64,000 bases of DNA, taken from the NCBI GenBank assembly GCA_038043245.1, contig JBBTCH010000003.1, positions 100,601-164,600 of the forward strand, read 5' to 3'. Positions 6,642-47,366 of the stretch are shown piece after piece (the stretch's first letter is position 1; every line of letters starts with the position of its first letter). The notes beneath the pieces were generated by a model, which did no database searches, was not told where the DNA came from, and saw only the letters and a program-made list of their open reading frames with translations. The position numbers were made by a program, and so were the translations under genes. Source of the DNA: Pseudomonadota bacterium. GTDB lineage: Bacteria > Pseudomonadota > Gammaproteobacteria > Nevskiales > Nevskiaceae.

Positions 6642-7880
6642 ATGCGCAATCTCTTTCAAGAATTTCAACTACAGACGAGAGGTCGGGGGGTCCGCGTGTT
6701 TGCCAGCGCGGCGCTGGTCGGATGTGCGGTTGCCGGTTGCGGCCTGCCATCGTCGGAGGTGGCGGTGCAGTCCGGCAGAAACGCATCCGGTTCCTGGCCG
6801 GAGATCGACGAACGTCTGCAACGCGCGGTGCGCCCAGCTGCGCCTGGCGTGCCGTGCCAGGGAGGATATTCGGCGGAATCCTGTGGTCTGGAATTGCGTT
6901 TCGGCTCGCGCGATCAGCTGTGGTACGACCAATCGTTTGGCGAGTGGACCCGGGACGCGCAAGTGCCCATTGCGTCTGCCAGCAAGTGGCTGACGGCGGC
7001 GGCCATCATGACCCTGGTGGACGAAGGCACGCTCGACCTGGACGCGCCCATCAGCACTTACTGGAGCGGTCTGGACGCTGACCACGGTGCCATCAGCATG
7101 CGCCAGCTTCTGTCCCATACGTCGGGAATGGTTCATCATGCTCCCTGCACCCACGACCAGCAGATACATACCCTCCAGCAATGCGCGCAGGAAATCCTGC
7201 TGCTGCCGTTGGCGGCAAAGCCGGGCACCACATTTCTATACGGGGCACCCAGCTTCCAGGTGGCCGGCGCCATCGCAGAAAAAGTCAGCGGCCAGTCCTG
7301 GCGCGACCTGTTCAAGGAACGGATCGCCGATCCGCTCGGAATGACAAAAACCCTGTACGGCTCGACCCGGGGGCAGTTCGCGGACACCACCAGCAATCCT
7401 CAACTGGCGGGAGGGGGAATCTCCACGGCCAGTGACTATTACGCGTTCCTGGACATGATGATGCAGCGGGGAATGTTTCAGGGCCGCCGGGTTTTGTCCG
7501 AACGCGCCTATGACGCGATGGAGCGCAGCAATACGGGCGGCGTAAGCCGTTATGAATGCCCGTTGACCGAGGCGGCCTGCTATCCGGTCTGGCCCACGGC
7601 CGGTTTTGCGCTGGGCAATCCCGCGACCGGCAGCGTGCCGTATGGGCTGGGCAACTGGCTGTTTCGTGTGGACAGCGACTGCAACGGCACGCTGGTCTCA
7701 AGCCCCGGTGCCTACGGCGTGCACGGCTGGATCGATACCATCCGAGGCTATCGCGGACTGTTGTTCATGAACGGCGACTACACGGCGTCAGCGCCTATAT
7801 TTGAGGATCTCCTCTCGATTCTGGATCAGCGCATTCCCCAGCGCACGGCGCCCGAGGCGCCGCTTAAGGATTGCGCCTAG
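6642..7880 (+). CDS. Beta-lactamase-family serine hydrolase (esterase family VIII / class C-like), lipoprotein
   Basis: Lipobox VAGC. IASASKWLTAAAIMTLVDEG (SxxK), LLSHTSGM and SSPGAYGVHGWID. Confidence 0.85.
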   Translation: MRNLFQEFQLQTRGRGVRVFASAALVGCAVAGCGLPSSEVAVQSGRNASGSWPEIDERLQRAVRPAAPGVPCQGGYSAESCGLELRFGSRDQLWYDQSFGEWTRDAQVPIASASKWLTAAAIMTLVDEGTLDLDAPISTYWSGLDADHGAISMRQLLSHTSGMVHHAPCTHDQQIHTLQQCAQEILLLPLAAKPGTTFLYGAPSFQVAGAIAEKVSGQSWRDLFKERIADPLGMTKTLYGSTRGQFADTTSNPQLAGGGISTASDYYAFLDMMMQRGMFQGRRVLSERAYDAMERSNTGGVSRYECPLTEAACYPVWPTAGFALGNPATGSVPYGLGNWLFRVDSDCNGTLVSSPGAYGVHGWIDTIRGYRGLLFMNGDYTASAPIFEDLLSILDQRIPQRTAPEAPLKDCA

Positions 7881-7906: not shown

Positions 7907-10486
7907 ATGCGGGCCGCGTGCCTGATGATTGTCGCGGGCCTCGGCGCATGTGGCGAGAGCCGGCCTCGCGAGCCGGCCCGTTCAATGCAGGCGGCAAGCC
8001 CGCAGATCGAAACCAGCGCCGCAGGCTTTCTGTCACGCCCTGAGATCGTGCTGCCGCCCCGCAGCCAGGTCATCAAGAGCGTGGATCTCGCAGGCGGCTG
8101 CGGTATTGCCCCAAGCGACGGTGGCCGGCAGGTGGACGGCCGCGCGGAGGACTGGAAAGGCTCGCCGACGGAAATCGCCGGCACGCATCGTTACGACGCG
8201 GGCGAATACCTGTGGAGCGACTTTCCGTTCGACGACGCCGGCGACGGCGCTTTTCAGTATCCCGGCGAAGCCACGCCGATCGTGGCGCAGGACGGCACCG
8301 CCGGAACCGCCAGCGAGCTGATGCAGCGTTACGGCGCGAACGCGGCCGACGTCGTCGAATTCCGCGCGGCGGCGGATGCGTCCACGCTGTATCTGCTGGT
8401 GCGGCTGAATTTTCTTAACGCGCTCAACAGCACCGTCGTTGGGCTGGGGTTTGATCTGGATCGCAACTCCGCCACCGGTTTCACCGCCTGGCCGCGCGGC
8501 GCCAACATCGACAGCGCCGGTCGTGGCCTCGACTTGTTCATCACTGCGTTCGGGGCCTGCGCCTACGTTACGACGCCCGCCGGCGAGCAAGCGCTGGATG
8601 CGCAGGGCGGCGCGATCCACACCGGCACGCGCGACAACGTCATGGAGATCGCGCTGCCGCTGGCCTTGCTGAATGGCGCGCAGGTTTTCGATGTCGTTGG
8701 CGGTAGCGGCCTGTGGGACGCGGCTGCGCAGAGCTGGATGCCGGTGGCGATGTCCGGCTCGGGCGCCAACGCCAACCCGACGCCGCGCGGCAAAAACACC
8801 GCGGGTGCGCCGGAAGTGTTCAACCTGATGTTCCGCGACGACGAGGCTTCGATCAACGCCTGCGCCGGCGTCGTCAACACCGACGCCAACTGCATGCCGG
8901 CCTCGTTCCACTCGTTTCAGGCGCGCAATCAGGTGCAGGCGCTGCGCGCAGGTACCAGCGGCCCGTATGCCGCTCAACTCGATCTCGCACGCTTGCAGCC
9001 CGGTGCATCCAGCGATCCGCAAGTGATTCGGCGTGGCGCCGAGACGTTTTTCACCCGCGTCTACCGCTCGCGGATCGACGCCGAAGGCGTGCTGCTATCG
9101 GGCAACAACGCGGTGTTCACCAGCCGCTATCAGCCTTACACCCTGTACGTGCCGGCCTGTTTCGAGCAGGGCTGCGCGCAGTGGCCGGACCCGGCGCGCG
9201 CGCCGCTGGCGTTGCAGTTGCACGGCGGCGGCAACGATCACCTGTCCGCCTCGCCGCGGCCTTCGATCCCGGAAGGTGGCAATGCGCTCTACGGCAGCGA
9301 GGATTTCTTCGCCGCCTACGACCGCGAATCCGCCGCGCTGATCGCCAGTCCGCTTGGGCGCGGCCTGCAGTTGCCTTCGTGGCGTGGCTACGGCGAAGCG
9401 GACGTGCTCGAAGTGCTCGACTCAGTCCGTGCAACCTATCGCAGTGATTCTGAGCGGCAGGGCATCATCGGCGGATCACAGGGCGGCTTCGGCACGTTTC
9501 GCATGGCCGGGTTTTATCCCGACCTTTGGAATTCCGTCTCGGTCGAATGTCCGGTGGCCAACGAAGCCAGCTCCAGCAATCCGCAGGGTCATGTTGTGCC
9601 GTCCACCGTGCCGTTCGTGATCGACGTGCTGATCCCCGCGCTGATCAACCTGCCTTATCTGCAGGGCAGCGGCACGCTCGATCCACTGGCGCCCATCACC
9701 ATGAACCAGCGTTTGCGCGATGCGGCGCTGGCCGCCGGTCTCGACGTCAAGTACACCGAGTACCTCGCCGGCAGCCATTGCTTCGATGTCGCGCAGGCGG
9801 CCTATCCCTACACCAATGCCGACGCCGCCGCCGCTGCGCGCGCGCTGCTGCTGCCGCGCCTGGCCCAGCCGGCGCGCGTGCGCTACCGGATTGACCCGCG
9901 CCAATATCCGCCGGCGGCGTTCAACGGCTTGTTCGATATCCGCGATGTCGGCGTGAGCTATGCCGGTGCGAACTGGGTCTTTGGTCTGCGCATGCGCCCG
10001 GACATCGAGTCGCTGGCCGCTTCGGGCGGCGCACCCGGCGGCACCGACGAAACCTCTCTGGGAGATTTCACGGCCGTGAGCCACGCCCTGCCGGGCTGGC
10101 AGATCACCCTCGAAGATTGCGTTGAAGGCTTGCCGGTGGGCATCGCCGGGGTCGCTGGCGGCAACCCGCAGAGCGAGCCGCTGTTGTTCAGTCCCAATGC
10201 CTACCAATGTCAGCGCCAGGTGCGTGGCGGCGAGTTTGCGCCGCTGCTGGAGTTGAGCGCCAGGAATCTTGAAGCCGCGGCTGTGGACCTCGCCGCCGCC
10301 GGCCTCGCGGACCAGGCCTTTGCGGTGCAGGCGCAGGGCGACGGTGCGTTCGAACTGCATCTGACCGCGAGCGCCTTACGCAACGCCGGCGGCGCCTGCG
10401 TGCAGAAATTCACGGCCGAGTCCGAGAGTGCGATCCTGCATTTACAATTGAGCGCGAACCTCTGCGAGATTCGCCTTGAGCCCTAA
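7907..10486 (+). CDS. Large lipoprotein: glucodextranase-C-like N-terminal domain plus C-terminal alpha/beta hydrolase
   Basis: MRAACLMIVAGLGAC lipobox. YLWSDFPFDDAGDGAFQYPGE resembles the glucodextranase-like surface domain. GGSQGGFGTFRM is a GxSxG elbow. The ORF track start at 7871 is a TTG overlapping the upstream gene. Confidence 0.75.
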   Translation: MRAACLMIVAGLGACGESRPREPARSMQAASPQIETSAAGFLSRPEIVLPPRSQVIKSVDLAGGCGIAPSDGGRQVDGRAEDWKGSPTEIAGTHRYDAGEYLWSDFPFDDAGDGAFQYPGEATPIVAQDGTAGTASELMQRYGANAADVVEFRAAADASTLYLLVRLNFLNALNSTVVGLGFDLDRNSATGFTAWPRGANIDSAGRGLDLFITAFGACAYVTTPAGEQALDAQGGAIHTGTRDNVMEIALPLALLNGAQVFDVVGGSGLWDAAAQSWMPVAMSGSGANANPTPRGKNTAGAPEVFNLMFRDDEASINACAGVVNTDANCMPASFHSFQARNQVQALRAGTSGPYAAQLDLARLQPGASSDPQVIRRGAETFFTRVYRSRIDAEGVLLSGNNAVFTSRYQPYTLYVPACFEQGCAQWPDPARAPLALQLHGGGNDHLSASPRPSIPEGGNALYGSEDFFAAYDRESAALIASPLGRGLQLPSWRGYGEADVLEVLDSVRATYRSDSERQGIIGGSQGGFGTFRMAGFYPDLWNSVSVECPVANEASSSNPQGHVVPSTVPFVIDVLIPALINLPYLQGSGTLDPLAPITMNQRLRDAALAAGLDVKYTEYLAGSHCFDVAQAAYPYTNADAAAAARALLLPRLAQPARVRYRIDPRQYPPAAFNGLFDIRDVGVSYAGANWVFGLRMRPDIESLAASGGAPGGTDETSLGDFTAVSHALPGWQITLEDCVEGLPVGIAGVAGGNPQSEPLLFSPNAYQCQRQVRGGEFAPLLELSARNLEAAAVDLAAAGLADQAFAVQAQGDGAFELHLTASALRNAGGACVQKFTAESESAILHLQLSANLCEIRLEP

Positions 10487-10609
10487 GCCGGTCAACGTCG
10501 TCAAGAAATCCCGTCTCGCCCTCGCCACCCTAGCGCGCTTCGCCGGTGGGGTCTGGGTCATCGAGCTGCCGGCTGGCGGCAATCAGCTCAGCATCACGCC
10601 CTGAACCCC

Positions 10610-12298
10610 ATGAGCACGTATCCGCCCCCCACTGAAGCCTTCGTCCGCGCGCGTGATTTCCTGTTTGCGCATCGCAGCGATTACGCCGCCGCCTATGCCG
10701 GTTTCGAGTGGCCGCGCCTTGCGCAATTCAACTGGGCGCTGGATGTCTTCGATATCGAGGCGCGCGGCAATGTGGCGCTCGCCCTGTGGGTGGTGAACGA
10801 GGATGGCAGCGAGTCGCGCATCACTTACGAGCAGATGCGACAGCGCTCCAATCAGGCCGCCAATTTTCTGCGCGGCTGCGGTGTTGCGCGCGGCGATGTG
10901 CTGCTGATCATGCTGCCCAATGTGCTGCCGCTGTGGGAGCTGATGCTGGGGGCGATCAAGATCGGTGCGGTGCTCAGCCCCGCAACCACGCTGCTCGCAG
11001 CGGCGGATTTGCAGGATCGCATCACGCGCGGCGACATGCGCCTGGTGATTGCCGATGTCGCCAGCACGGCGAAGTTTTCTGAAGTGTCCGGCAGCTACAG
11101 CCGCATCGTGGTCGGCGGCAGCGTCGCGGGCTGGCAGCGCTACGAACCCGCAGTGGCAACCGAGTTCGTGCCGCAGGGCGCAACCGAGGCCAGCGATCCG
11201 CTGCTGCTCTACTTCACCTCCGGCACCACGGCGAAGCCGAAGATGGTGCAGCACACCCAGCAGAGCTATCCGGTCGGGCATCTCTCCACGCTCTACTGGC
11301 TGGGCCTCAAGCCCGGCGATGTGCACCTCAACATCAGCTCGCCCGGCTGGGCCAAGCATGCCTGGAGCTGTTTCTTCGCGCCCTGGAATGCCGGGGCGAC
11401 GGTGTTCATCAACAACCAGCCGCGCTTTGATGCCCGGCAGACCCTCAGCACGCTGGTGCGCTGTGGCGTCACCAGCCTGTGCGCGCCGCCGACGGTGTGG
11501 CGCGCACTGATTCTCGAAGACCTTGCCAGCTACCCGGTGCGGCTGCGCGAGTTGATTGGCGCGGGCGAGCCCTTGAACCCGGAGGTGATCGAGCGCGTGC
11601 GCGCGGCCTGGGGCCTCACCATCCGCGACGGTTACGGCCAGACCGAAACCACCTGCATGATCGGCAACCCACCGGGCTGGCCGGTGCGCGAGGGTTCGAT
11701 GGGGGTGCCGATGCCGGGTTACCGCATGGCGCTGGTGGATGAGAACGATGTGGCGAGCAATGAAGGCGAGATCGCGGTCGCACTGCGGCCTGCACCGGCG
11801 GGTGTGATGGCGGGCTATCGCGGCCAGCCGGAGCGCAATGCGGCGCTGCTGGGGGGTGCGTACTTCCGCAGCGCCGATGTCGCCCGCCGCGATGCCGAGG
11901 GCTATTACTGGTATGTCGGCCGCAGCGACGATGTGTTCAAGTGCTCGGACTACCGCCTGAGTCCGTTTGAACTCGAAAGCGCGCTGCTGGAGCACGCTGC
12001 CGTCGCCGAGGCCGCCGTGGTGCCCAGCCCGGATGCGATCCGCCTCAATGTGCCGAAGGCGGTGGTGGTGTTGAAGCCCGGCATGGCTGCTGATGCGCAC
12101 ACCGCGAAAGCGCTGTTCGACTTCATCCGCACGAGACTTGCGCCCTACCAGCGCATCCGCCGCATTGAGTTCGCTGAGCTGCCCAAGACCGTCTCCGGCA
12201 AAATCCGCCGGGTCGAGCTACGCGCCACGGCCGTCGAGCGTCAGCAACAAGGCCTACGCGGCCCTGCCGAGTTCTGGGAAGAGGATTTTTCAGCATGA
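10610..12298 (+). CDS. AMP-dependent acyl-CoA synthetase (medium-chain-like)
   Basis: LYFTSGTTAKPKMV AMP-binding motif, GYGQTETT and SGKIRR at the C-terminus. Confidence 0.9.
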   Translation: MSTYPPPTEAFVRARDFLFAHRSDYAAAYAGFEWPRLAQFNWALDVFDIEARGNVALALWVVNEDGSESRITYEQMRQRSNQAANFLRGCGVARGDVLLIMLPNVLPLWELMLGAIKIGAVLSPATTLLAAADLQDRITRGDMRLVIADVASTAKFSEVSGSYSRIVVGGSVAGWQRYEPAVATEFVPQGATEASDPLLLYFTSGTTAKPKMVQHTQQSYPVGHLSTLYWLGLKPGDVHLNISSPGWAKHAWSCFFAPWNAGATVFINNQPRFDARQTLSTLVRCGVTSLCAPPTVWRALILEDLASYPVRLRELIGAGEPLNPEVIERVRAAWGLTIRDGYGQTETTCMIGNPPGWPVREGSMGVPMPGYRMALVDENDVASNEGEIAVALRPAPAGVMAGYRGQPERNAALLGGAYFRSADVARRDAEGYYWYVGRSDDVFKCSDYRLSPFELESALLEHAAVAEAAVVPSPDAIRLNVPKAVVVLKPGMAADAHTAKALFDFIRTRLAPYQRIRRIEFAELPKTVSGKIRRVELRATAVERQQQGLRGPAEFWEEDFSA

Positions 12299-13095
12299 GC
12301 AATGCACAGCTGCCCGTCAGCATCGAACGGCGCGAGCGCACCGCTATCGTCACGCTCAACCGCGGCGACGGACGCAACGCGCTCAATACCGAGGCGATGA
12401 CCCTGCTGCGTGATATCGCTCTGGAGCTGGCGCGCGATCCCGATCTCGGCGTGGTGATCGTGCGCGGCGAGGGGGCGTTTTCTGCGGGTGTGGATCTTTC
12501 CGAGTTGGCGCAAGGCAAACCCGGTGCCGGAAAGACGGTCGCCGAGCTGCGCGAACTGGTGAAGCTCGGCCCGGCGATGTGCAAGGCCTGGGAAGACATC
12601 GAAGCGTTCACCATTGCCGCCATCGAGGGTTACTGTGTCGGTGGCGCTGCCGCGCTCGCCGCCAGCGTGGATTACCGCGTGCTGGGCGAATCGGCATTCC
12701 TGCGCCTGCCGGAAGTGCCGCTGGGCATCAACATGAGCTGGCAGACGATTCCGCGGCTGGTCGCGCAGATCGGCCCCGCGCGCACCAAGCAGTACGTGAT
12801 TCTGGGCAAGCGCATCGCCGCAAAGCAGGCGCTGGATTGGGGCTTGTGCGAAGAAGTCACAACGGACGGCAAAACGCTCGAAGCCGCGCAGAAACTCGCC
12901 GCCGAAATTCTGGACCTGCCGCCACTGCCGGTGCGCATGACCAAGCAGACCGTGAATGCCGTCGCCAACGCATTGAGCACGCTGACCTCGCACATGGACC
13001 GCGATCAGTACCTGTTGACGACCCAGACTCAGGATTTCGCCGAGGCTGTCGCCGCCTGGCGTGACAAACGCAAGCCGAAATTCACCGGGAATTGA
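12295..13095 (+). CDS. Enoyl-CoA hydratase/isomerase (crotonase) family
   Basis: The ATGA overlap with the upstream stop suggests translational coupling. FSAGVDL and AAIEGYCVGGAAALA are crotonase motifs. Confidence 0.9.
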   Translation: MSNAQLPVSIERRERTAIVTLNRGDGRNALNTEAMTLLRDIALELARDPDLGVVIVRGEGAFSAGVDLSELAQGKPGAGKTVAELRELVKLGPAMCKAWEDIEAFTIAAIEGYCVGGAAALAASVDYRVLGESAFLRLPEVPLGINMSWQTIPRLVAQIGPARTKQYVILGKRIAAKQALDWGLCEEVTTDGKTLEAAQKLAAEILDLPPLPVRMTKQTVNAVANALSTLTSHMDRDQYLLTTQTQDFAEAVAAWRDKRKPKFTGN

Positions 13096-26145: not shown

Positions 26146-26157
26146 GCGTTTAATTGT

Positions 26158-26239
26158 GTCATTCCGAGCATCGCGAGGAATCTGATCAGATCCTTCCCCC
26201 TCAAGGGGGGACTGAACAGAGTCGTTCGCTCAGGATGAC
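26158..26239. repeat. REP/MITE-like palindromic element (GTCATTCCGAGC family)
   Basis: GTCATTCCGAGC...GCTCAGGATGAC inverted termini. Shares GTCATTyCGAGC..GCGAGrAATCTGATCAGAT with the element at 47293. Confidence 0.6.
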
Positions 26240-26242
26240 AGC

Positions 26243-29200
26243 TTAGAGTTTTCCTTCCACCCAAGCCGTCACACTGGCAATCGCTTTCGGTAAATGCTCG
26301 GGCTGCGTTCCTCCAGCCTGCGCCATGTCGGGACGGCCGCCGCCCTTGCCACCGACCTGGCCGGCGACGAAGTTCACCAGTTCACCCGCCTTCACTTTCG
26401 CGGTGAGATCGGCGGTGACGCCGGCAATCAGGCTGGCTTTGCCGTCGCTGGCTGAGCCGAGCAGGATGATGGCTGAGCCCAGCTTGTTCTTGAGCTGGTC
26501 CATCAGCGTGCGCAATCCATCTCCGTCCATGCCGTCCACCTGCGCGGCGAGCAGCTTCACGCCCTTGATCTCTTTTACCTGCGCAGACAGGTCATCACCG
26601 GCGCTCGACGCCAGCTTGCCTTTGAGCGCGGCCAGTTCCTTTTCCAGTGTTTTGGTGCGCTCCAGCGCCTGCTGGATTTTTTCCGTCAGGTCATCGGGGT
26701 TGGCGCGCAATAATCCCGCTGCATCCTTCAGTTTGTTTTCAGTGGCCTGAACATAGGCGAGGGCGTTGGCGCCTGTGACCGCCTCGACACGGCGGATGCC
26801 GGCGGCGACGCCGCCTTCGCTGACGATCTTGAAAAGGCCGATGTCGCCGGTACGCGACACATGGGTGCCGCCGCAAAGCTCAGTGCTGAACTCGCCCATC
26901 TTCAGCACGCGCACTTCGTCGCCGTACTTTTCGCCAAACAACGCCATGGCGCCGGACTTGATCGCCTCGTCGTACTTCATCAGCGTCGCCGCGACCGGCA
27001 CGTTGGCCAGCACCGCCTGATTCACCTGTTTTTCAATCTCGGCGATTTCCTCTGGCTTTACCGGCTGATTGTGCGAAAAATCGAAGCGCGTGCGCGCGTC
27101 GTCCACCAGCGAGCCTTTCTGGCTGACGTGGGTACCGAGCACGTCGCGCAGCGCCGAATGCAGCAGGTGGGTGGCGGAATGGTTGCGCTTGGTCGCCTCG
27201 CGGCGCGCGACGTCAATTTCTGCGCTGACGGTGTCGCCGGTCTTCAGCGATCCGGATTTGAGTTTGCCGTTATGCGCAAAACCGCCGCCGGCGATTTTCT
27301 GCGTGTCGCTGACCTCAAAAATTAACCCCCTCTCCCCCTTGGGGGAGAGGGTTGGGGTGAGGGGGTTGCTGCTCACCGAGCGCCCCTCACCCTGGCCCTC
27401 TCCCCGTGAAACGGGGAGAGGGGAAGTAAGAGAGCCGGTATCACCAACCTGGCCGCCGGATTCGGCATAGAACGGCGTGTGGTCGAGCACCACCACGCCT
27501 TCGCCGCCGCCGGCGAGCTGATTCACTGGCTGCCCGTTCTTGTACAGCGCCACGACTTTGGCCTTGGCGAGCTTGGTTTCCTGATAACCCTCGAAGCAGG
27601 TTGCTGCGCCATCGTATTTCAGGGTTTCGTTGGCGCCGAACTTGCTGGCCGCACGGGCGCGCGTGCGCTGCGCATCCATCTCGCGCTCGTAGCCGGCCTC
27701 GTCCAGCTTCAGGTTGCGCTCGCGCGCGATGTCGGCGGTCAGGTCAATCGGGAATCCATAGGTGTCGTAGAGCTTGAAAACAAGCTTGCCACTAATGAGT
27801 TGCTTGGAGAGTTCATGCCGCGACACAAAGTGCAATCGAAATTTTGGGCTGATGCTAGCGAGGCATTGAGATATTTCTAAATTATTTGCAGTGGTATTGC
27901 CCTCGACAACTATGTAATTTATTTCCGCAAGGTTCTTGTCAATAAGCGAGTTCTCTAATAATTGACGCGCATCTGTAAGCGCCTGCCCACCGTTGAGATT
28001 GTCGTCAGCGACTACCGCAACCACCTGTATTTTCCTGCCATCCTTTTCTATGTAACCGTCGTAATAATTTTGATTTCGGTAACCTGCAAAGATATCGGCG
28101 TTATGTTTTTCGGCGAACGACATGAAACATCTTTTCGCTGGATGCAATTCTTCCTCGAGCAGCTTCATGCCCTTGTCGAGGGTGATGGCGAAGCTGTCCT
28201 CCTCGGCACGGATCGCTTTTTCGATGGACGCCTGCTGCTGACGCAGCTGCGGATAAGCCTCGCCCATGATTTCGGCGAGCGGCGCCACCAGCTTGAAGAA
28301 GAACGGCTCGTTGAGGCCCAGCTTGTAACCGTGGCGGATGCCACGACGCATGATCCGGCGCAGCACATAGCCGCGGCCTTCGTTGGACGGCAACACACCG
28401 TCGGCGATCAAAAAGCTGGTCGCGCGAATGTGATCGGCGATGACTTTCTGCGAGGCATTGGTGTGCGGCGCCTGCTTGGCCAGCTTGGCGACTGCGCCGA
28501 TCAGGTGCTTGAAAGTGTCGGTCTGGTAGTTGTCGTGCGTGCCTTGCATCAGCGCGCAGATGCGTTCCAGCCCCATGCCGGTATCCACGCTCGGCGCCGG
28601 CAGCTTCTTCAGCTGGCCGTCGCTGCCGCGCTCGAACTGCATGAACACCAGATTCCAGATCTCGATCCAGCGGTCGCCGTCCTCGTCCTTGCTGCCCGGC
28701 GGGCCGCCGGCGATTGCCGGGCCGTGGTCGTAGAAGATTTCGCTGCACGGGCCGCAGGGGCCGGTGTCGCCCATCGCCCAGAAATTGTCTGAAACGTATT
28801 TGGCACCTTTGTCGCCGATGCGCACAATGCGGTCAGCCGGCAGGCCGATCTCCTTGTGCCAGATGTCGTAGGCCTCGTCGTCGGACTCGTACACCGTGAC
28901 CAGCAGGCGCGACTTGTCGATGCCCAGCCACTGCTTATCGGTGATGAATTCCCACGCGAAATGAATGGCGTCCTTCTTGAAGTAGTCGCCGAAGCTGAAG
29001 TTGCCGAGCATCTCGAACAGGGTGTGATGGCGCGCGGTGTAGCCGACGTTCTCAAGATCGTTGTGCTTGCCGCCGGCGCGCACGCACTTCTGCGACGACG
29101 CCGCGCGCACATACGGGCGCTTGTCCTGGCCGGTGAAAACGTCCTTGAATGGCACCATGCCGGCGTTGGTGAACAGCAGCGTCGGGTCGTTGCCGGGCAC

Positions 29201-29281
29201 GAGCGAAGACGAGGGCACCACGGTGTGGCCCTTGCTCCTGAAAAACTCCAGGAATTTCGCTCGCAGCTCATTCGTATTCAT
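26243..29281 (-). CDS. alaS: Alanine--tRNA ligase carrying two in-frame insertions (1012 aa)
   Basis: [19 protein letters not shown]..., [31 protein letters not shown] and a C-Ala domain. About 135 aa longer than the ~875-aa bacterial norm (from memory). Confidence 0.95.
27326..27424. repeat. Triple-hairpin palindromic element inside the alaS coding sequence
   Basis: CCCTCTCCCCC-tt-GGGGGAGAGGG (27328-27351). GGGGTGAGGGG...CCCCTCACCC (27354-27392). CCCTCTCCCCG-tgaaa-CGGGGAGAGGG (27396-27422). Confidence 0.8.
27797..28135 (-). other. AT-rich in-frame insertion (~112 codons) within alaS
   Basis: Hand count gives 128 G+C in the 300 nt 27841-28140 (~43%), against the GC-rich remainder of the gene. 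The reading frame is uninterrupted. Confidence 0.8.
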
Positions 29282-47284: not shown

Positions 47285-47292
47285 GCGGATGT

Positions 47293-47355
47293 GTCATTTC
47301 GAGCGCAGCGAGAAATCTGATCAGATTCCTCGTCGAATACGCTCCTCGGAATGAC
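47293..47355. repeat. REP/MITE-like palindromic element (GTCATTCCGAGC family)
   Basis: GTCATTTCGAGCGCAGCGAGAAATCTGATCAGAT...CTCGGAATGAC with inverted termini. Confidence 0.6.
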
Positions 47356-47366
47356 AGGAAGAAAAA

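Follow-up and report, generated by a model that had tools for sequence, protein, structure and literature searches.

We analysed a window of 64,000 nucleotides from a Nevskiaceae genome (GenBank assembly GCA_038043245.1, contig JBBTCH010000003.1, positions 100,601 to 164,600) in which alaS, the gene for alanyl-tRNA synthetase (AlaRS), contains a GC-rich, stop-free palindrome of ~100 nt at positions 27326-27424. The alaS coding sequence occupies 26243..29281 on the minus strand, and its open reading frame translates into 1012 codons; compared with a typical AlaRS of ~875 amino acids, it carries two in-frame inserts. The Pfam domains tRNA-synt_2c, tRNA_SAD and DHHA1 are present in all AlaRS homologs, and these homologs place the organism in the order Nevskiales, among relatives of Solimonas, Nevskia, Fontimonas and Sinimarinibacterium. 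A sequence-only reading of this DNA had described the palindrome as a triple hairpin of the REP (repetitive extragenic palindrome) or MITE (miniature inverted-repeat transposable element) type sitting in frame in alaS, and had likened it to the Rickettsia palindromic elements (RPE). The sequence and its in-frame position are confirmed, and the translation corresponds exactly to the peptide quoted there.

Anatomy and family of the alaS element

On the plus strand, the element reads CCCCCTCTCCCCC-TT-GGGGGAGAGGG-TTG-GGGTGAGGGG, then an 18-nt spacer, and then CCCCTCACCC-TGG-CCCTCTCCCCG-TGAAA-CGGGGAGAGGG. It is more aptly seen as a pair of inverted units of three blocks, each composed of a C-arm, a G-arm and a second G-arm, than as three equal hairpins. 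Unit 1 (27328..27364, plus strand) starts with the C-arm CCCTCTCCCCC (27328-27338), which is followed by a TT loop, the G-arm GGGGGAGAGGG (27341-27351), a second loop (loop-2) of sequence TTG (27352-27354) and the second G-arm GGGTGAGGGG (27355-27364). Unit 2 (27383..27422, minus strand) is inverted relative to unit 1. Read on its own strand, CCCTCTCCCCG (27412-27422) is followed by a TTTCA loop, CGGGGAGAGGG (27396-27406), the loop-2 CCA (27393-27395) and, as the third arm, again GGGTGAGGGG (27383-27392). The spacer, GTTGCTGCTCACCGAGCG on the plus strand (27365..27382), separates the two units.

The arms CCCTCTCCCCC and GGGGGAGAGGG are complementary at 11 of 11 positions (27328-27338 / 27341-27351), and CCCTCTCCCCG pairs with CGGGGAGAGGG (27396-27406 / 27412-27422). 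GGGGTGAGGGG and CCCCTCACCC lie within a further, 23-nt pair that is 87% complementary (27342-27364 / 27383-27405). The middle hairpin of the sequence-only reading is the pairing between the third arms of both units. In the predicted single-stranded DNA fold of the plus strand, three hairpins do appear (-41.1 kcal/mol, z = -6.65 against shuffles), so that this part of the earlier description stands, whereas the notion of three equivalent hairpins gives way to the two-unit anatomy. The mRNA is predicted to fold into a single long hairpin (-75.4 kcal/mol, z = -6.29 against shuffles). Within the 64-kb window, the two occurrences of the hairpin pattern CCCTCNCCC-N(1-12)-GGGNGAGGG both lie in the element, with 0.00 occurrences expected (100 shuffles); the two-arm pattern GGGNGAGGGNNNGGGNGAGGG likewise occurs twice, again both in the element, with 0.10 expected from shuffles. 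When the arms are read antiparallel, they yield only G*G:C, A*A:T and T*A:T triads, which are those of the purine-motif triplex, making the element a putative triplex.

Judged by its sequence, the element is an inverted doublet of the BoxC/PIT/TMECO intrastrand triplex motif repeat, a known and named family. The repeat was called BoxC in E. coli, later PIT element and then TMECO (Holder et al. 2015 Nucleic Acids Research, PMC4666352, where Bachellier et al. in the 1990s and Hoyne et al. 2000 are cited as earlier sources). That study reports 3610 occurrences of the pattern CCCTCNCCC-N3-6-GGGNGAGGG-N3-GGGNGAGGG in 262 proteobacterial genomes and the formation of an intrastrand purine-motif triplex in vitro. 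It links the deletion-prone motif to local genomic instability, finds no link to phages or other mobile elements, and describes its function and mechanism of mobility as not known (PMC4666352). In E. coli K-12, all 23 copies are intergenic, and five inverted pairs each join a type A unit (loop-2 TTA) to a type B unit (loop-2 CCG) (PMC4666352).

Unit 1 matches the published pattern exactly (27328-27363; 0 matches expected by chance). Unit 2 fits it except for a first gap of 9 nt when counted with 9-nt stems, which is long because the true stem is 11 bp with a 5-nt loop. A 107-nt query matched 4306 of 5426 complete E. coli genomes at 79% identity over 90% of its length; the matches (a median of 4 places per genome) fall under no annotated feature and are apparently intergenic. 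The E. coli copies share the architecture of a TTA/TTG loop-2 unit, a spacer of ~15 nt and an inverted CCG/CCA loop-2 unit. The window's loop-2 sequences TTG and CCA are each one base off the E. coli types TTA and CCG, and TTG is the third commonest loop-2 among 114 family units. The window element and the E. coli repeat therefore have in common the three-block unit, the inverted pairing, the combination of a T-rich and a C-rich loop-2, the 79% alignment and the same triads; they differ in that the K-12 copies are intergenic, whereas the window copy lies in frame in an essential gene. We treat the intergenic location as a description of the E. coli copies and not as a defining property of the family.

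A contig scan of one genome per species with GGGGAGAGGGNNNGGGTGAGGGG, a 23-mer covering two G-arms, returned at least 120 loci, of which the 120 listed were used. They derive from Proteobacteria, Planctomycetota, Verrucomicrobiota, Acidobacteriota, Nitrospirota, Chloroflexota, Myxococcota and others. Nearly all of them consist of CCCTCTCCCC, a loop, GGGGAGAGGG, 3 nt and GGGTGAGGGG, often as an inverted pair, and family-wide the flanks are unconserved apart from pyrimidines at -1 and -2. Rfam contains no family for the element and returned only sub-threshold matches to generic hairpins (miRNA precursors). In IMG/VR viral contigs (L212-L291 and further), we also noticed at least 120 loci with the 23-mer, counted without distinguishing phage DNA from prophage host flank. 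The site of the best E. coli match (L208, H16-H54) lies between an flhA pseudogene and yafL and is strongly rearranged between strains; hicAB is inserted there in many of them, which fits the instability reported around these motifs, and no clean empty site was recoverable from so rearranged a locus.

The earlier assignment to a REP/MITE-type repeat holds in so far as the element belongs to a dispersed repeat family. That family is BoxC/PIT/TMECO, with no known transposase and no clear target duplication, and REP and MITE serve as analogies only. REPs are extragenic by definition, and REP sequences are species-specific. REPINs, the RAYT-mobilised REP doublets, are likewise short GC-rich palindromes and often inverted pairs forming a long hairpin, but the window unit differs from them by its third arm outside the hairpin, and its family crosses phyla. 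MITEs and ERIC sequences are likewise small non-autonomous repeats able to fuse in frame with host open reading frames. By contrast with the window element, which is palindromic and shows no duplication in three filled/empty pairs, MITEs are bounded by terminal inverted repeats and in most cases come with target duplications and a cognate insertion sequence. Intragenic MITEs and ERIC that make in-frame fusions are listed in the summary given by PMC10969869 (Delihas 2007; QMITE1 of Coxiella; Anabaena MITEs). The same summary describes RPE (Ogata et al. 2000 Science) as palindromic elements of ~100-150 nt that lie in frame in housekeeping genes, are translated and map to surface regions. The window element resembles RPE as so summarised in being an in-frame insertion in a housekeeping gene at a fold-compatible position, a likeness of shared behaviour and not of membership. 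RPE are AT-rich and belong to an obligate intracellular genus, whereas the window family is GC-rich, spans many phyla and is built of triplex-type three-block units; the taxon differs, and the sequence family is apparently unrelated. Repeated targeting of one protein loop by several families is not mentioned for RPE in the PMC10969869 summary.

The insert in AlaRS

In the closest ortholog (P0001, DNA locus L001; 93% amino-acid identity in aligned columns), two codons (GA) stand where the window has 36: P0001 reads GDTGSI-GA-FEVKDTQK and the window GDTGSL-[36 residues]-FEVSDTQK. The empty site that the sequence-only reading had hoped to find among relatives thus exists. Codon comparison with L001 places the 36-codon insert at 27320..27427 on the minus strand (AlaRS residues 619-654), a net gain of 102 nt, with AGC ATC GGC GCA TTC of L001 corresponding to TCT CTT ACT T-[doublet]-G TTA ATT TTT of the window. 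The foreign DNA appears to be wider than the doublet itself because the two preceding codons are wholly unlike those of L001 (TCT CTT versus AGC ATC), the Phe codon after the insert is TTT and not TTC, and pyrimidines occur at -1/-2 throughout the family. We place the probable full footprint at 27318..27433, an inexact boundary that takes in the doublet and short AT-containing and purine/pyrimidine ends (AAAATTAA... and ...AAGTAAGAGA on the plus strand).

Window alaS and L001 are 93%, 96% and 70% identical at codon positions 1, 2 and 3, respectively. The excess of positions 1 and 2 over position 3 indicates that alaS is still under purifying selection. Over the 15 codons on either side of the insert, the filled allele matches the empty one at an identity of 0.93 and 0.91, compared with 0.86 gene-wide; no diverged tract came in with the element. 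Three filled/empty pairs showed no convincing target-site duplication, another feature that the sequence-only reading had looked to, and neither a cognate transposase nor a RAYT was evident, although no search was aimed at either. We also considered that the empty site might present itself as the loop of a coding-sequence hairpin (GTCGGCGAC ... GTCGCCGAC) and rejected this candidate, as the folds of four empty sites are weak and inconsistent.

We modelled the full AlaRS with AlphaFold2 from a 72-sequence alignment (mean predicted local distance difference test score, pLDDT, 76). The model contains strands at residues 616-619 and 654-664 (block pLDDT 91-92) joined by coil, with pLDDT <50 at 628-647. 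In this arrangement, the insert forms a low-confidence and probably disordered excursion from a beta-hairpin tip. The beta-hairpin belongs to a region rich in strands, immediately after which the query aligns with the A. fulgidus AlaRS editing domain (query 655 onwards versus 3WQY residue 557 onwards).

The arms of the family are well suited to being read through. CCCTCTCCCC, GGGGAGAGGG and CCCCTCACCCC contain no stop in any frame, and GGGGTGAGGGG exposes a TGA in one frame; overall, the arms are open in five of six frames, and the residues that they encode (Pro, Ser, Leu, Gly, Glu and Arg) give the composition that flexible loops typically have. In two loci, L124 and L125, the first unit lies in the TGA-exposing frame, and their second loop has 5 nt instead of 3, which shifts the reading frame past the TGA. 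A 5-nt second loop is likewise implied by the peptides of P0048, P0091 and P0100. All seven loop inserts seen at the DNA level (7/7) are multiples of three and stop-free. An intein or translational bypass was considered and rejected: every insert is an open multiple of three, and no intein-like junction residues are present. Open multiples of three, together with a 5-nt loop-2 that avoids the TGA, point to ordinary translation and not to bypass or splicing. We infer that the peptide is really made and that it is neutral.

Recurrence and origin of the loop inserts

We aligned the window AlaRS with its 120 best homologs, giving a Nevskiales sample of 121 proteins. The loop has two residues in 57 of them, six residues in 34 and at least ten in 25. 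Twelve of the 25 long loops are of the triplex-motif type, occurring as doublets and singlets and in two reading frames. The remaining inserts include a C-run/G-run type (P0004 and P0008; in L127 it reads AATCCCCCC...TCCCCCCTTGAAAAAGGGGGGGCAGGGGGGATT), an RPERSEAKSKG type (P0081, P0101), a TSHVSRLTPHV type (four proteins) and a PPACGG type (five proteins). In all, this loop of 2-6 codons is shared by at least four repeat families. Repeat-type inserts of these families occur at no other AlaRS position in the 121 proteins; the inserts at a second variable site, near residue 380, are of other kinds. The C-run/G-run insert (P0008, L127 ~11500-11690; P0004) is also three-block, TCCCCCC-TTGAAAAA-GGGGGG-GCA-GGGGGG, has the termini AATCCCCCC/GGGGGGATT, and may represent another triplex-type repeat family.

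As an outgroup, we used 68 alaS genes of other proteobacteria from a metagenome contig scan, 58-65% identical to the Nevskiales AlaRS query. None of these 68 carries a long insert in this loop. With the two samples drawn differently, the contrast gives p = 7e-6 for long loops (Fisher's exact test) and p ~0.004 for the 12 triplex-type loops (hand calculation). The loop is mostly 2 aa long in Nevskiales and 6 aa in other proteobacteria. In one outgroup gene (L168, alaS 10001-12649), we noticed a triplex-derived peptide, LPHPQSLSRGEREAEPSPAGRGQGEG, at 11195-11226 in the other variable loop, which is the site of the second insert of the window alaS.

The carriers are scattered on a neighbour-joining tree; pairwise identities are more robust than the tree. 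The nearest relatives of the carriers (90-95% identical) are empty or hold a different repeat family. The window and P0001 (92.6%) and P0046 and P0112 (92.5%) are pairs with an empty partner, whereas P0005 (triplex type) pairs with P0008 (C/G-run type) at 93.7% and P0048 (triplex type) with P0067 (TSHV type) at 92.2%. Any two carriers of one insert type share only 67-84% identity. We compared four pairs, filled/empty or filled/filled, and none of them showed a fall in identity next to the insert. Because near relatives are empty or differently filled, the content of the loop turns over much faster than alaS diverges, and because flanking identity does not drop, the inserts enter resident alleles instead of arriving with recombined alaS segments.

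The window, L002 and L003 carry a doublet with the same net 102 nt, frame, junction offsets, orientation and spacer length; the L002 and L003 spacers are 61-72% identical to that of the window (hand count). Among these three, the element is 0.72-0.83 identical with no position-3 excess of change, compared with 0.49-0.65 at flanking third positions. The element is thus conserved at the nucleotide and not at the protein level. An identity of 0.72-0.83 is what any two family copies show, and it proves neither youth nor function. Outside alaS, the Nevskiales loci (164 kb) contained a single degenerate unit and the outgroup loci (919 kb) three units, so that a triplex-family occupancy of ~10% in the loop compares with roughly one unit per 150-300 kb elsewhere. 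Decayed-looking relics are present in the loops of P0007, P0030 and P0062.

In-frame copies are not limited to alaS. Requiring stop-to-stop frames that extend 80 codons or more to either side of the motif, we found at least 10 among the 120 loci listed, in genomes of several phyla, in which the motif lies in frame with Pfam domains on both sides: in IleRS (L019, Devosia), Mfd (L006), LigA (L045), VgrG (L096), UvrB (L099), an ABC exporter (L008), IspG (L076), HrpB (L107), DsbD (L113) and the lipoyl-domain linker of Lpd (L065). The UvrB copy corresponds to a 63-residue gap in the solved Bacillus UvrB, between residues 402 and 405. Intragenic copies are not reported in PMC4666352, and BoxC or triplex motifs are not mentioned in PMC10969869, a 2024 review of prokaryotic MITEs that lists in-frame RPE, ERIC, QMITE1 and Anabaena MITEs. 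Adjoining the triplex unit in UvrB (L099) is a second long palindromic repeat (...RREEA...LLTSAAT...), also in frame; this repeat occurs in frame in HrpB of another genome as well, at ~residue 450 (L107).

We consider it likely that the window element is a tolerated BoxC/PIT/TMECO doublet inserted in frame in an alaS loop and presumably translated. A copy would have inserted into the resident alaS allele and replaced a two-codon turn where the encoded beta-hairpin has its tip, in the beta-barrel region preceding the editing domain. With an insert length that is a multiple of three and arms open in five of six frames, it would presumably be translated straight through. The resulting 36-residue peptide, rich in Pro, Ser, Leu, Gly, Glu and Arg, forms in the model a disordered excursion at the surface and does not disrupt the fold. 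The element is most likely a tolerated passenger and not a functional module, and de novo insertion appears to have taken place several times. The RPE-like picture drawn by the sequence-only reading, a selfish-type palindrome tolerated in frame in an essential protein, is borne out by the empty ortholog site, the purifying selection on alaS, the dispersed cross-phylum family and the coil model.

Several observations weigh against a tolerated, repeatedly inserted repeat. The pattern scans revealed no further copy of the element in the 64-kb window, so a multi-copy status in this genome is unsupported here, and the family is nearly absent outside alaS in the 164 kb of Nevskiales loci. No convincing duplication is seen at the three filled/empty pairs, and no target is conserved at these pairs, or family-wide beyond the two pyrimidines. 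The tree on which the carriers scatter is a single-gene neighbour-joining tree without support values. The common architecture and similar spacers of the window, L002 and L003 fit one founder as well as three targeted insertions, and the unusual 5-nt loop-2 found in all frame-c carriers could reflect common descent and not independent filtering. Finally, translation of the peptide is a prediction, and its neutrality is something we infer.

How the loop came to be filled so often can be explained in several ways. One possibility, which we think short of probable, is targeted integration, in which the loop-coding segment would be a preferred site (a 'safe harbour') for triplex and other GC-rich repeats that insert with site and orientation specificity. 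This would explain why three distant alleles (those of the window, L002 and L003) have a doublet of one kind with identical offsets, frame and orientation, within flanks that in the window resemble the empty sister; why at least four repeat families share one loop of 2-6 codons; why triplex occupancy there is ~10%, compared with one unit per 150-300 kb elsewhere; and why the other variable AlaRS loop lacks a triplex copy in the same 121 proteins. It sits less well with the filled/empty pairs, which have no conserved target or duplication, with the flanks, which family-wide are unconserved beyond two pyrimidines, and with the empty sites, which form no consistent hairpin. Moreover, the L168 copy in the other loop and the in-frame copies in many unrelated genes fit a plain tolerance filter. 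These same observations (the L168 copy, the many other host genes, and the absence of a conserved target, duplication or hairpin at empty sites) favour tolerance as the alternative to targeting, perhaps combined with long persistence, in which imprecise deletion would kill an essential gene, so that copies would become trapped.

The architecture common to the window, L002 and L003 (net 102 nt, junctions and spacer length) could instead descend from one or two ancient founder insertions inherited vertically, with arms kept by constraint or conversion and later deletions leaving a 2-aa scar. We regard this as unlikely. The 5-nt loop-2 common to all frame-c carriers, the mostly 2-aa loop of Nevskiales as opposed to 6 aa in other proteobacteria, the deletion-prone nature of the family (PMC4666352) and the decayed-looking relics in P0007, P0030 and P0062 agree with it, but the nearest relatives (90-95%) have canonical 2- or 6-aa loops or another family, so that many exact reversions would be needed. 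The window hairpins are perfect (11/11) even though synonymous sites between carriers are near saturation, and different families in the same loop require separate insertions anyway. Very improbable, in our view, is a lateral spread of filled alaS segments by homologous recombination between Nevskiales lineages, which would copy few insertions often. Each insert type is indeed scattered across lineages, with identical position and length in three distant hosts. Recombination of this kind is contradicted by four pairs in which the identity of filled and empty sister does not drop beside the insert, by the L001-like codons GAT ACC GGC that the window keeps to within three codons of the junction, and by a near-flank third-position identity between carriers that is not raised. 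Least credible of all is co-option of the element as an RNA or DNA structure (pausing translation between the synthetic and the editing half, or serving as a signal for recombination or regulation) or as a functional loop. Its appeal lies in the conservation of the arms, which at each of the three codon positions exceeds the neutral level seen in the flanks, and in a very stable mRNA hairpin (-75 kcal/mol). Yet arms are common to any two copies from unrelated phyla, and their conservation needs no local function; the distribution is sporadic, with close relatives lacking the element, the peptide is modelled as low-confidence coil, and singlets, doublets, two frames and other families interchange in the loop.

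The setting of the doublet, in frame in an essential gene, within a family that lies in frame in genes more generally, and in a loop recurrently occupied by several families, is new in the searchable literature. BoxC/PIT/TMECO has been known since the 1990s and was described as intergenic and unconnected with phages, plasmids or transposons; of the 120 loci listed from several phyla, a small sample, about one in twelve is in frame. The phenomenon of 'selfish DNA inside proteins', best known from Rickettsia, is thereby extended to a GC-rich cross-phylum family. The AlaRS loop is a permissive insertion site, and peptides of this kind should not be taken by annotators as signs of a pseudogene or misassembly. 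One loop of one enzyme in one order, filled by several families, is also a natural experiment whose many independent filled and empty sites, such as are seldom to be had, could reveal the insertion mechanism. More tentatively, and with more doubt than confidence on our part, the Nevskiales AlaRS loop may be a true hot spot for BoxC and at least three other GC-rich families, entered repeatedly at the same offsets and orientation, and in-frame BoxC copies may be a general, overlooked source of disordered loops. If so, the natural filled/empty pairs would offer a first handle on how a transposase-less cross-phylum repeat moves.

A spacer element and a second insert

The sequence-only reading had also related a hairpin in the lysC-alaS spacer to the palindrome. 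This hairpin belongs to a different palindromic element (26157-26240), with C6/G5 pairing at its centre and TGTCATYCYGAGCG-type terminal inverted repeats, the repeat end of which recurs at 7333-7346 and 47292-47356. No terminator-like site was called in the alaS-lysC spacer.

The second in-frame insert of alaS comprises 116 codons of foreign composition (27797-28144, minus strand; AlaRS residues 380-495) and maps between residues 382 and 384 of E. coli AlaRS. Its GC content is 0.44 and its GC at third codon positions (GC3) 0.47, compared with 0.62 and 0.77-0.86 in the rest of the gene. It could be assigned to neither a Pfam nor a PHROG family, had no homolog in a set of 1.84 billion representative proteins and matched no plasmid DNA. 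AlphaFold2 run on the single sequence predicts, with low to moderate confidence (pLDDT 64.5, predicted template modelling score 0.62), an a-b-b-b-a-b-a-b domain, for which Foldseek returned weak restriction-endonuclease-like similarity (ASFV RPB5 N-terminal domain, template modelling score 0.54; EndoMS, XisH and EcoO109I). At the same site, P0108 (L209 1286-4249), from another Nevskiales lineage whose near relatives lack an insert, carries 124 codons (residues 382-505) with a GC of 0.45 and a GC3 of 0.39, compared with 0.62 and 0.79. The two inserts have no significant sequence similarity to each other (E = 0.75) and share the junctions LLE[EK]E[LV]... and ...[LV]ISG (native VIPG). Elsewhere in the sample, this site holds a GDGSG-repeat insert (P0005) and an acidic insert of ~23 aa (P0028).

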